From positions 75,803-139,802 of the forward strand of contig CAYXPQ010000001.1 in NCBI GenBank assembly GCA_964467225.1: DNA of 64,000 bases. Reading direction: 5' to 3'. A program made the translations under genes and the position numbers. Below the pieces are notes generated by a model, which did not search any database, was not told where the DNA came from, and worked only from the letters and a program-made list of their open reading frames with translations. The DNA is from an uncultured Candidatus Saccharibacteria bacterium. Its GTDB lineage: Bacteria; Patescibacteriota; Minisyncoccia; Phycocordibacterales; PALSA-1337. The first letter of the stretch is position 1. Every line of letters starts with the position of its first letter. Below are positions 27,015-28,827 of this stretch, piece after piece.

Positions 27015-27035
27015 CTGTGGAGATGGGCGGAATCG
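27015..27035 (-). repeat. 21-nt exact copy of the tmRNA 3' end (T-loop to 3' terminus), att-like
   Basis: ctgtggagatgggcggaatcg is identical to 28419..28439, which is the 3' end of ssrA on the minus strand. Confidence 0.7.
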
Positions 27036-27233
27036 GTCAATGTTGTATACAGATTACCCTCTACAGATGAGAAAACTTTATTTGTAACGGACAAAAACAA
27101 ATAAAATTTATAGCCTTATTTAAAAGGATATTTAGTAGATTTATTTGCAAAATATATACCAGGGATACACTACCACTACACCAAAAACACAGACCTTCTT
27201 TATATTTAATATTTATGGTATAGTGTTGCTACT

Positions 27234-28097
27234 ATGGAAAATTTACAAAAAGGTTTTGCCAACATAGCTATTATTGCAGTTATTGTGATTTTAGCAGGTG
27301 CAGTAGGTTATTGGACATTAGGTAGGTCCGAATCAACGCAGCAAGAAAATATTGTTAATACTCCTTCAAATACTGAAACAGTAAATTCAGCAACAAATTC
27401 AGATAGGGTACCACAAGGTGCAAGTTATGTTTCCGAAGAAGGCCGTATTCAAGTTGCATATCCTAAAGGTGGAGAAGTCTTAGAGATAGGTAAAACCTAT
27501 GAGATTAAGTGGACCAATTACGCTGGTGGTGATCCTTTGGCTATTGCTCTTCAAGTCACCACTCCTGATAATAAAACTTCAACTAAACCAATCACATCAA
27601 ATGCTCCTGCCACCGGATCATATAAATGGACTGTAACATCTGAAAATACAAACAATAAATATAAGATTGAAATAAACCCTTCGGGTGGACGTGAGTTAGT
27701 TGGACGCAGTAAAGATTATTTCACTATTACAGGTGATCAGCTCATAACTTCAGTCTCTCCTCAATCTAATGCTCGTGTTGACGGACAACAACCTGTCGTA
27801 ATAACTGGAAAAGCTAAAAATGTGTTTGGTGAAGGTGAATTTGACCTTACTGCTTCTTATATTCTCGATGGTAAAAAGCAGATCGTTTCTCGAGGAATTG
27901 CAACTTGTAATCTAGCCGGCAATGGTTGTGATTGGACTTCTGGTAAACTGATTGATTTTAAGGCAACTCTTGATCTATCTAAATCTCCGGTATGTTTTGT
28001 AAATGTGGAATTTTTCAAACGAGATGAACGTACGCCACAAATCAATTCCTTCTTCTCTTTGCCGTTATGGCTTTACGGAATAAACGACTGTCAGTAA
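27234..28097 (+). CDS. secreted/membrane-anchored protein with a Kre9/KNH-like (ISPNGGE-type) module
   Basis: 287 aa with an N-terminal TM or signal segment. The motif YPKGGEVLEIGKTYEIKWT is paralogous to the repeats in the 2135..5218 protein. Confidence 0.65.
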   Translation: MENLQKGFANIAIIAVIVILAGAVGYWTLGRSESTQQENIVNTPSNTETVNSATNSDRVPQGASYVSEEGRIQVAYPKGGEVLEIGKTYEIKWTNYAGGDPLAIALQVTTPDNKTSTKPITSNAPATGSYKWTVTSENTNNKYKIEINPSGGRELVGRSKDYFTITGDQLITSVSPQSNARVDGQQPVVITGKAKNVFGEGEFDLTASYILDGKKQIVSRGIATCNLAGNGCDWTSGKLIDFKATLDLSKSPVCFVNVEFFKRDERTPQINSFFSLPLWLYGINDCQ

Positions 28098-28390
28098 TTC
28101 AGAGTCTTTAGGAGTATTGCATAAACCTTACATACTTGTACAATTCAGGTATACCTTCCACATCTAAAAATGAAATTCTTGATCTATAACTCGGTACAGG
28201 TGAGAATTTCCAACTTTCATACGCCACCTACTTTACAGATGAGAAATCTAAGGAAGTAAGAGAACTGCTTAATAAACGACGCTTTACAGAAGGTTTTACG
28301 CTTGGGTCCCACCCCAAGCTCACCCGACTCGCTCGCCTACGCTCGTTCCGTCTTTCTATTCCTAGCATGCTCTTCAGCAGGTAAAAGAAA

Positions 28391-28414
28391 AAACCGACAA
28401 AAGTCGGCTTTTCT
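28391..28414. terminator. bidirectional hairpin terminator between islet gene and ssrA
   Basis: ccgac-aaaa-gtcgg flanked by A-runs upstream and T-runs downstream on both strands. Confidence 0.55.
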
Positions 28415-28421
28415 TTTACTG

Positions 28422-28827
28422 TGGAGATGGGCGGAATCGAACCGCCGTGCAGATGAAATCTTATACCACTTCTACATTGTATAGCTAACTTTAGCGAGGT
28501 CTGATCCTCTTTTAACTTACATACTATAAAGTAAACAAAATATATGTAAGCGATTCCCAAGGTTTCAAACTATAAGCAGGGAAGAGAATATAGTTCTAGT
28601 TCATGTATATATCACCTCATCACTACTCTGAACGCGTAGTGAGAAATGTCGCTTAAGCCGTAGCTAGAGCGAAAGTAAAATCACGTGATCCAAAATATGG
28701 AGACACAATTGACTTTACCTTTGCAACTGTTGAATTAGCAGTTAACATTTTCCATTAGTTTAAAGAGATAATGGAACTCTACAATGCGTAATATGAAGTA
28801 CCTCAACTGTCGAGGCCTTTCATCCCC
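28422..28827 (-). ncRNA. ssrA: tmRNA (transfer-messenger RNA)
   Basis: Minus-strand 5' end GGGGATGAAAGGCCTCGACAG. The 3' end GGCGGTTCGATTCCGCC-CATCTCC-A forms a 7-bp acceptor with the 5' end, including the G3·U70 wobble, plus a T-arm. An internal tag frame ends ...GCT CTA GCT ACG GCT TAA. The gene lies immediately downstream of smpB. Confidence 0.8.

Follow-up and report, generated by a model that had tools for sequence, protein, structure and literature searches.

Why should a bacterial genome carry, 1.4 kb from an intact gene for transfer-messenger RNA (tmRNA), a second exact copy of the last bases of that gene? The question is raised by the ssrA locus in a 64,000-nucleotide stretch of contig CAYXPQ010000001.1 (assembly GCA_964467225.1, positions 75,803 to 139,802) of an uncultured Candidatus Saccharibacteria bacterium, referred to below as the window. 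Apart from this locus, the window is Patescibacteria core genome (EF-G, a ribosomal protein operon, RecG, type IV pilus genes, LigA, GatA, MurB, SecA). A first-pass annotation, made from the sequence alone, had read the two copies as the borders of a small integrated islet carrying a surface-protein gene. The answer reached here keeps that reading in part: the locus is a tmRNA-gene integration hotspot, distinguished by its cassettes, which are very small and lack an integrase, and by a conserved non-coding module on the 3' side of ssrA. We consider it probable, at roughly 60%, that site-specific recombination in the ssrA T-loop left the distal copy behind as an att-type direct repeat, and that the interval between ssrA and a PLD-family gene, the first conserved core gene beyond it, is an additive hotspot.

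The exact 21-mer CTGTGGAGATGGGCGGAATCG has only two sites in the window when up to two mismatches are allowed, 27015-27035 and 28419-28439, and none of 100 dinucleotide-preserving shuffles of the window gave a match, in agreement with the first-pass view that the repeat is not due to chance. Including its flanks, the repeat is identical at 23 of 24 positions. Read in the tmRNA sense, the 21-mer is CGATTCCGCCCATCTCCA followed by CAG, running from the third T-loop base to the discriminator and then 3 nt further; exact search, ARAGORN and Rfam agree with the earlier statement that one copy is the T-loop-to-3'-end of ssrA. The tmRNA gene, on the minus strand, was placed at 28421-28827 by ARAGORN and at 28419-28827 by Rfam (RF00023, 109.5 bits, E 7e-42). 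It is full length, covering Rfam model positions 1-374 and containing a tag open reading frame (ORF) found by ARAGORN, i.e., the target gene is intact, and CCA is not encoded at its 3' end. The distal copy stands in direct orientation on the same strand, on the 3' side of ssrA and 1404 bp away, and starts in the T-loop. Because it is direct and lies 3' of the gene, its orientation is the one that integration predicts, and its earlier description as an att-type displaced tmRNA 3' end is retained here.

In each of three samples, an independent Logan contig matches the window at 100% identity (over 24600-28450, 25377-28450, and 27688-29428), so the repeat structure is not a mis-assembly; together with the shuffles, this rules out both chance and assembly artefact. 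Logan contigs L001 and L002, from different runs, both end at window position 28450, their last 31-mer beginning at the tmRNA 3' end. This shared end suggests a branch in the assembly graph, which could reflect co-occurring strains with different post-tmRNA DNA or a tmRNA sequence common to species.

The ssrA loci of relatives (GTDB species representatives and members of the 90% SmpB cluster) place the second copy in a variable interval. In L014 (SmpB 80%), the tmRNA gene has an encoded CCA and is followed by a 42-codon membrane ORF, with the PLD gene starting ~150 bp after the tmRNA; the module described below, the second copy, and all of window 25914-28420 are missing, and with its encoded CCA the locus resembles an empty site. 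Measured against L014, the variable interval extends past the distal 21-mer as far as the PLD gene at 25913. L013 (tmRNA 96%) has 28327-28418 and the region of a 64-aa ORF (26355-26629), between which lie a 311-aa and a 386-aa gene and no second copy, while L015 (SmpB 81%) has 28323-28418 and then a second copy; the two copies form a 33-bp repeat, are spaced 155 bp apart, and enclose no ORF. Relatedness is about equal among the window, L013, and L125 (96-98% identity in the tmRNA, 85-88% in the smpB region), and among these near-equidistant relatives the cargo differs, comprising a 287-aa gene in the window, the 311-aa and 386-aa genes in L013, and a 145-aa gene in L125. The variability of the interval up to the PLD gene bears out the first-pass suggestion of a hotspot for foreign DNA.

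Two relatives carry tandem arrays. In L125 (GCA_020049755.1; tmRNA 96% identical to that of the window, core genes ~82%), the tmRNA gene leads into a complete module, succeeded by copy 2 (at 8449, 3 mismatches) and the 145-aa gene with its own promoter-like site and terminator; then by copy 3 (at 9112; TCGATTCCACCCAATCTCCACAG plus the 11-nt trailer of the proximal copy), an 84-aa membrane ORF, and a homolog of the 64-aa ORF; and finally by a decayed copy (ATCATCCACAG, ~9811), a 66-aa gene, a small membrane ORF, a homolog of a 95-aa ORF of the window, and the PLD gene. The 64-aa ORF is common to the window, L013, and L125, and the 95-aa ORF to the window and L125. Homology between L125 and the window restarts exactly at 27014, the base after the distal 21-mer, so the distal copy of the window marks a cassette boundary that has decayed in L125. 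In L119, a module is followed by a degenerate copy, a ~0.87-kb cassette (146-aa ORF), and a 27-nt exact copy that runs into a complete second terminator. In the close relative L128 (3059-3140), a second copy, CTACTCCGCCCATCTCCACAA, was seen 61 bp after the first, behind a terminator; it is the smallest unit seen, and the contig ends there.

The first part of these arrays is a conserved non-coding module. Between the direct copies, its order is constant: trailer and palindromic terminator, an inverted tmRNA-end copy, CGGAGC, a variable hairpin, GAGnCGGGG, a hairpin termed hp3, and the direct copy; a subtype variant has GAGCCGGGCCGG in place of GAGnCGGGG. There are two or three hairpins, hp3 carries a conserved bulged A, and the replacement tmRNA 3' end of the module type is CAG, not CCA. 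In relatives, the inverted copy (for example CTGTGGAGATGG, an optional hairpin, then GCGGAATCGAAC) shows up as an exact reverse-complement match of 10-13 nt to the T-arm or acceptor strand of the host, located at +43 to +93. It tracks the T-arm of its host, being GGGGATTGAAC in L027 (T-arm GGGGGTTCAATCCCCCC) and GCGGAGTTGAAC in L025.

Among 33 loci from JGI metagenomes, scanned with the 21-mer, a second tmRNA 3'-end copy was found 151-214 bp off in 10 (L093, L094, L098, L099, L104, L106, L107, L116, L118, L121), a sample that is biased because the query ends in CAG, the module-type trailer. The same arrangement is present in L025 (Kaiserbacteria, 207 bp) and L125 (153 bp), and in relatives with an intact module no ORF lies between the tmRNA gene and the second copy (150-215 bp). 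In the unbiased GTDB set, the module was found in ~4 of 12 informative Patescibacteria loci (L013, partial; L015; L025; L027) and not in L014, L020, L023, L030, L032, L033, or L036, and none of 24 non-Patescibacteria ssrA loci had a second copy better than 13/18. CCA terminates the distal copy in 4 of 12 relatives' loci and the proximal copy in none. The repeat starts within 1 nt of one T-loop position (with C in the window, L093, and L099; with TC in L015, L025, L094, L098, L104, L107, L116, L118, and L121), as a crossover in the T-loop predicts.

Five-sequence alignments of hp3 revealed compensatory changes in 3 of 9 pairs in type A (100% paired cells) and in 6 of 15 pairs in type B (98.7% paired cells), with covariation of both types above shuffled and slid controls. 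One G-U pair is kept in 5/5 type-B sequences and is readable on the tmRNA-sense strand only. Apart from weak sub-threshold tmRNA_permuted matches, Rfam identified no family in the module, and neither the tmRNA-database paper nor the literature searched mentions it; the module is apparently previously undescribed.

Several explanations of the module as part of an RNA gene were rejected. A group I intron in the T-loop was excluded because the proximal gene is complete alone and none of six module loci had an Intron_gpI match at E<=1; the smallest known intron-form tmRNA genes total 545 bp (tmRNA-database paper). A permuted two-piece tmRNA was rejected on the basis of an RF04321 score of 25-27 bits, mostly from the genuine tmRNA 3' end, compared to a gathering threshold of 47, and of a module without a tag ORF. 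A tRNA-like gene on either strand of the module was also discarded, since ARAGORN found none and a local T-arm is impossible. A purine-rich heptamer before GAGCCGG is complementary to the acceptor strand at 5-6 of 7 positions in several loci (by eye), with no T-stem possible.

In the window, this module is interrupted. Positions 28322-28418 represent its 5' part (aligned with L118, L114, L015, L094, and L013), and the tmRNA-proximal ~95 bp (28323-28418) are common to L013, L015, L125, L118, L114, and L094. Module homology halts at the foot of hp3, and beyond the insert just TGAC (27036-27039) and the distal copy are left. The 1.28 kb at 27040-28321 stands where relatives have ~30 nt of hp3, which places the direct copies of the module 1404 bp apart instead of ~150 bp. 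Since relatives have the second copy at 150-215 bp with no ORF, the duplication is older than the gene. The first-pass interpretation of 27036-28418 as a single recent integrated unit is therefore abandoned: ~95 bp of it are shared with relatives, which have the second copy without the gene. However the 287-aa gene entered the older module, it was not as a 1383-bp islet. The comparison with relatives that the first-pass annotation had proposed gave a divided result, with the gene absent from 4/4 (L013, L125, L015, L014), the proximal 95 bp present in L013, L125, and L015, and no relative having the tmRNA joined directly to 27014. The ancient fixed duplication that it had named as the alternative agrees with a distal copy shared by many relatives and disagrees with a gene order that is not shared.

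The break in the module of L013 lies 4-5 nt from that of the window, in L114 it falls within the distal core, and in L101 within the middle hairpin; given these differing break points, cargo junctions are not at one fixed position. The terminator alleles conflict with relatedness, the window being 100% identical to L125 and L013 98% identical to the more distant L094, compared to 71% between the window and L013, while beyond the terminator the module of the window resembles L013, not L125. Because module pieces are mosaic with respect to relatedness, the alignments point to an exchange of module segments between lineages.

The gene between the repeats encodes a membrane-anchored surface protein of 287 aa and, as the first-pass annotation had stated for 27234-28097, has a Kre9/KNH module (Kre9_KNH, E 6.7e-9); it is the only ORF >62 aa between both 21-mers. 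Its 54 homologs all come from Patescibacteria or metagenomes, and those at 80%, 65%, and 58% identity lie in unrelated contexts: the first has a PG_binding_1 gene on one side, yqeY/rmuC on the other, and neither tRNA nor tmRNA genes in its vicinity; the second adjoins two tRNA-Ser genes; and the third (L010) adjoins a 497-aa large serine recombinase and tRNA-Arg/Gly. Similar flanks around these homologs were sought and rejected, DNA similarity of the window to the homolog loci being restricted to the coding region, so a common cassette boundary could not be defined. In L010, a groundwater relative (7800-12200), the 58% homolog at 10001-10849 lies between 106-nt inverted repeats that are 98% complementary, and the serine recombinase gene lies between 101-nt perfect inverted repeats, its 3' end overlapping tRNA-Arg. 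The arrangement looks like an invertible or shufflon-like module, or else like an integrative element whose cargo is the surface protein; in another assembly, L011, the sequence breaks off 103 bp upstream of the homolog gene. A 1027-aa protein at 2135-5218 of the window likewise has a Kre9_KNH domain (E 7e-12).

An inner direct repeat (17/19 identical) brackets the 287-aa gene within the insert. Its 13-mer core, TACAGATGAGAAA, has no other exact occurrence in 1.34 Mb of related loci; in the tmRNA sense the repeat is CTCATCTGTA(G/A)AG, matching 9 of 13 positions of CCCATCTCCACAG, the acceptor end, and on this resemblance it may be an older, decayed tmRNA-end copy.

Base composition does not mark the insert as foreign. 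The islet has a GC content of 0.372 compared to 0.347 for the window, i.e., the 90th percentile among same-size windows, and the 287-aa gene has a G+C content at third codon positions (GC3) of 0.226 compared to 0.237 +/- 0.030 in 23 reference genes, with an ordinary codon-usage distance. As GC3 and codon usage of the gene are typical, composition is no mark of foreign origin, and the idea of a foreign islet composition, raised as a check in the first-pass annotation, was rejected for this native-like gene. The bidirectional terminator that it had noted is present at ~28388-28413, and its GC-rich 3' segment is likewise real (56% GC at 28290-28360), yet in our alignments this segment corresponds to the conserved purine-rich motif of the module, not to foreign DNA. 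The small ORFs nearby (66, 64, 95, and 142 aa), which it had listed as signs of foreign DNA in GC-richer flanks, are indeed atypical, with GC3 of 0.31-0.39. The features of the locus are listed in Table 1.

Table 1. Features of the ssrA-PLD interval and its borders (window coordinates)
Feature	Position	Strand	Basis and remarks
smpB, directly upstream of ssrA	28840-29307	-	Pfam SmpB, E 1e-47; 149-aa form from second Met on record for source genome
ssrA, standard one-piece tmRNA, tag AKVKSIVSPYFGSRDFTFALATA, CCA not encoded	28421-28827	-	ARAGORN; Rfam RF00023
Proximal 21-mer (attL-like), T-loop to 3' end plus CAG	28419-28439	-	Repeat search, Rfam
Trailer and palindromic intrinsic terminator, first part of ssrA-flanking module	28382-28418	.	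Two-strand terminator scan, inverted repeat; 100% identical to L125, 71% to L013
Degenerate inverted tmRNA 3'-end copy CCTGCTGAAGAGCATGCTAGGAATAGAAAG	28352-28381	-	Aligns with CTG(T/C)TGGAGA..GGAATCGAAC of L118, L094, L013
Purine-rich conserved motif ACGGAACGAGCGTAGGCGAGCGAGTCGGGT; homology to relatives' modules ends here	28322-28351	-	Alignment
Lineage-specific 1.28-kb insert in place of module hairpin hp3	27040-28321	.	Alignment with intact modules; outside the coding region no DNA similarity to any relative
Inner direct repeat copy b, CTTTACAGATGAGAAATCT	28231-28249	.	17/19 identical to 27059-27077
Gene for 287-aa membrane-anchored surface protein, cargo, convergent with ssrA	27234-28097	+	Kre9_KNH Ig-like domain, E 6.7e-9; weak sub-threshold Gmad2-like match (Pfam)
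Inner direct repeat copy a, CTCTACAGATGAGAAAACT; with copy b brackets the 287-aa gene	27059-27077	.	Repeat search
Distal 21-mer (attR-like); TGAC ahead of it in tmRNA sense is the end of the module hp3 foot	27015-27039	-	Repeat search, alignment
66-aa coiled-coil/Cys-rich gene, next cassette	26739-26939	-	85% nucleotide identity to L125 9838-10112, there preceded by decayed copy; GC3 0.388
Rest of variable interval: terminator 26643-26674; 64-aa ORF 26369-26563 (+); 95-aa Cys-rich ORF 25972-26259 (+)	25914-26738	.	Missing in L014
PLD-family (cardiolipin-synthase-like) gene, first conserved core gene beyond hotspot	24834-25913	-	Pfam PLDc_2, E 6e-43; syntenic in L014, L015, L125

From these comparisons we infer a recombinase origin of the repeats, the order of events, and the way in which the gene came to lie within the module. 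Small cassettes, most of them with a single gene, would have accreted one after another in the ssrA-PLD interval (25914-28418) of a Paceibacteria-like lineage, with tmRNA-end copies left between them. The distal copy would be a displaced native tmRNA end, since L014 has an encoded CCA and no module, and CCA ends occur on some distal and no proximal copies; it would also form the boundary to the next cassette, that of the 66-aa gene. The last hairpin of the module would then have been replaced by the 1.28 kb carrying the 287-aa gene, and the present structure, given that no recombinase is encoded in cis, would be either a fixed remnant or a site acted on in trans. Recombination in the T-loop is favored by the common start of the repeats, the L014 site, the CCA of distal copies, the tandem arrays, the turnover of cargo, the mosaic module, the location of the 287-aa homologs in other contexts, and the lack of a good second copy in the 24 non-Patescibacteria loci, and it fits the published additive accretion at tRNA genes (tDNAs).

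Several results weigh against this interpretation. As the first-pass annotation had already reported, there is no integrase: Pfam detected no tyrosine or serine recombinase domain among 36 ORFs scanned in the window. A motif regular expression and phmmer, with XerD and the L010 serine recombinase as queries, likewise found no recombinase in any module-bearing locus, the tyrosine-recombinase test by phmmer with the XerD query being weak, and none was seen in about 60 ssrA loci that could serve the same att site. No IMG/VR viral contig has the 21-mer or either of two arm-plus-core junction patterns, and PHROGs and Pfam returned nothing informative on a phage origin of the small neighboring ORFs or of the relatives' cargo. 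No clean empty site was recovered either, no relative joining the tmRNA directly to 27014. The gene was inserted within hp3, not at a repeat boundary, so the 1383-bp unit is not the product of a single att x att event. Finally, the module is just 130-190 bp long and is found from Kaiserbacteria to Paceibacteria-like genomes, and its covarying hairpins and the inverted copy tracking the T-arm look more like a selected structure than a scar. This structural conservation is the main unexplained point, and it supports keeping a structured RNA or DNA element as a rival. Separately, an unrelated metagenome-assembled genome (L037:9206-10141, SmpB 44%) has a serine recombinase gene on the opposite strand ~300 bp after the tmRNA, at a contig end, a position that resembles the DsiB arrangement of Dehalococcoides.

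According to that rival, which we regard as possible and on balance unlikely, the module is a structured part of the ssrA locus with a function of its own, either as a read-through RNA or as a single-stranded DNA hairpin, in which the inverted and distal copies close a long acceptor/T-arm-like stem; selection, not recombination, would keep the distal copy identical to the tmRNA end, and the 287-aa gene would have broken the module at hp3 by illegitimate recombination. The covariation of hp3 in types A and B, the type-B G-U pair readable only on the tmRNA-sense strand, and the match of the inverted copy to the host T-arm in L027 and L025 speak for it, as do the sequence motifs kept across distant hosts, the ACCA end on 4 of 12 distal copies, and the fact that each element alone folds to the same closing stem and multi-branch interior. 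However, an intrinsic terminator precedes the module, which makes its transcription doubtful, no local T-stem is possible before the distal copy, and Rfam returned just weak sub-threshold tmRNA_permuted matches. The module is moreover missing in L014, L020, L023, L030, L032, L033, and L036, it is cut or interrupted with no obvious penalty in the window, L013, L114, and L101, and an RNA function offers no explanation for the arrays with extra trailer-bearing copies in L125 and L119. An equally tentative extension of the recombination model, suggested by likeness to known cassette systems, would make the locus an ssrA-linked, integron-like cassette platform that uses the T-loop-to-3'-end as its site and has its one-gene cassettes inserted and deleted by a recombinase encoded elsewhere; the module, with its inverted copy of the site and its covarying bulged hairpins, would serve either as an attP/attC-like substrate folded from single-stranded DNA or as a miniature, non-autonomous element capable of integration, and the direct-inverted-direct order would be its integration footprint.

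Two further explanations are less probable. The direct-inverted-direct order could have arisen with no recombinase, by replication template switching at the palindromic terminator, and then been inherited and remodeled by deletions and insertions. A direct copy, a palindromic junction, an inverted copy, a second hairpin junction, and a direct copy do follow one another as in a tandem-inversion duplication, a mechanism known from work on lac amplification in Salmonella, and the failure to find a recombinase agrees with such an origin. We nevertheless consider this improbable, as the ~60-100 nt between the inverted and distal copies are not copied from the tmRNA, the left boundary lies at one T-loop position in divergent lineages, the arrays hold third copies with genes between them, and module pieces are mosaic across lineages. 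Least credible of all is a discrete island, 27036-28418, recently integrated into an empty ssrA site and later deprived of its integrase. Perfect 21-bp direct repeats in the expected orientation and the lack of the gene in relatives agree with such an island, but the proximal 95 bp are common to six relatives lacking the gene, intact modules put the second copy at ~150 bp, the composition is native-like, and no empty site was found.

Some further observations were made at this and related loci. Between smpB and ftsH, the window has a 142-aa Cys-rich ORF (29391-29819) with GC3 of 0.378, far above the genome mean; alignment of this region succeeds with L013 and L125 and fails with L014 and L015, a patchiness that indicates a second small variable spot, 5' of smpB. 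In other Patescibacteria, restriction-modification-like genes follow ssrA (L095:718-3683 and L108:2190-5232; a C5-methyltransferase-like ORF, a helix-turn-helix ORF, and a LexA-like ORF), and L111 has an excisionase-like helix-turn-helix ORF there, both read by eye from translations. The close relative L126 (37-1092) has a gene for a 351-aa LAGLIDADG_3 homing-endonuclease-like protein before recG, where the window has tRNA-Ser genes. ARAGORN also identified tRNA-Ile(TAT) at 31877-31951 and tRNA-Ser(ACT, with A at the wobble position) at 36489-36576 of the window, beside a normal tRNA-Ser(GCT). Both of these unusual tRNAs recur in relatives: L013-L019 and L021 have Ile-TAT, while Ser-ACT is present in L007 and L008.

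Patescibacteria have tiny genomes with few recognizable mobile elements, and their gain of surface and defence genes is for this reason poorly understood. The ssrA locus offers a concrete route by which they gain genes. Should the module prove to be a folded recombination site or a miniature integrative element, cassette-type gene capture would extend beyond integrons, and a defined DNA site would become available for finding the responsible recombinase; should it prove to be a structured RNA, it would add a new RNA to those associated with ssrA. Island finders that need a tDNA fragment and an integrase miss such arrays, and fragment-only tools mis-size them.

How, then, does this locus compare with known systems? 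CTX-phi attP(+) and integron attC are folded single-stranded recombination sites, and integration of a hairpin attP leaves a hybrid site, a loop, an inverted copy of the site, the rest of the element, and a hybrid site. The ssrA module resembles them in its direct-inverted-direct topology, imperfect structure-conserved hairpins, conserved bulged base, and single-gene cassette arrays, and this is a resemblance only. In contrast to those systems, it has no XerCD-dif or IntI context and no attI/intI, the upstream neighbors of ssrA being smpB, the 142-aa ORF, and ftsH, with no adjacent intI or attI. Unlike integron cassettes, the gene cassettes of L125 and L119 end in an ordinary terminator and a direct copy, with no attC palindrome, and paired inverted and direct copies occur in the module only. 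Cis-mobilizable elements (CIMEs), reportedly described by Pavlovic et al. in 2004 as att-flanked integrase-less derivatives of integrative elements, share with the present units the flanking att-type repeats, the lack of integration genes, and the tandem accretion; the units here differ from that definition in that no related autonomous element using the same att site was found in viral contigs or in ~60 ssrA loci. The T-loop sublocation of integration in tDNA and tmRNA genes is said to have been recognized by Williams in 2002 and 2003. As in Islander/TIGER islands, the target gene is regenerated and the displaced 3' fragment is direct and starts in the T-loop. Unlike in Islander islands, for which an integrase gene is a defining feature (PMC4383910), no integrase lies between the repeats, and the unit is far under the usual island size.

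Among systems at the same or similar target genes, the Pseudomonas IntY/AlpA islands lie just downstream of tmRNA, have a 14-bp repeat of the acceptor end and their own tyrosine integrase, and are tens of kb long (PNAS 2025, PMC12595487). Like the present locus, they place defence genes or other cargo next to the 3' end of the tmRNA gene, flanked by a short direct repeat of its final bases, whereas the repeat here reaches the T-loop, no integrase was found, and the units are far smaller. In Prochlorococcus, new tycheposons at a tDNA push older elements outward, degenerate remnants and partial tDNA copies lie dispersed through the island, the greater part of whose DNA can no longer be recognized as an element, and the tycheposons carry tyrosine recombinases and replication modules (bioRxiv 10.1101/2020.12.28.424599). 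The ssrA locus is similar in its additive growth at a tRNA/tmRNA gene of a streamlined genome, its degenerate remnants, and its extra partial copies; it differs in that no tyrosine recombinase or replication module was seen here and no inverted-site module was described there. The Dehalococcoides ssrA islands are tandem units downstream of ssrA, 10-30 kb in size; 16 have a six-gene integration module with the large serine recombinase DsiB overlapping attL, and some lack integration genes and were proposed to be cis-mobilizable (2011, PMC3146451). Compared to these islands, the units described here are only 0.06-1.4 kb long and mostly contain one gene, no DsiB/CcrB-like serine recombinase was detected in the window or the module loci by phmmer or Pfam, and there is in addition a conserved module, rich in hairpins, that contains the site in inverted form. 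What the two have in common, as seen in the window and in the L125 and L119 arrays, is the tandem organization of units, the ~20-bp ssrA 3' repeats, the insertion point in the T-loop, and a conserved motif just upstream of each repeat.

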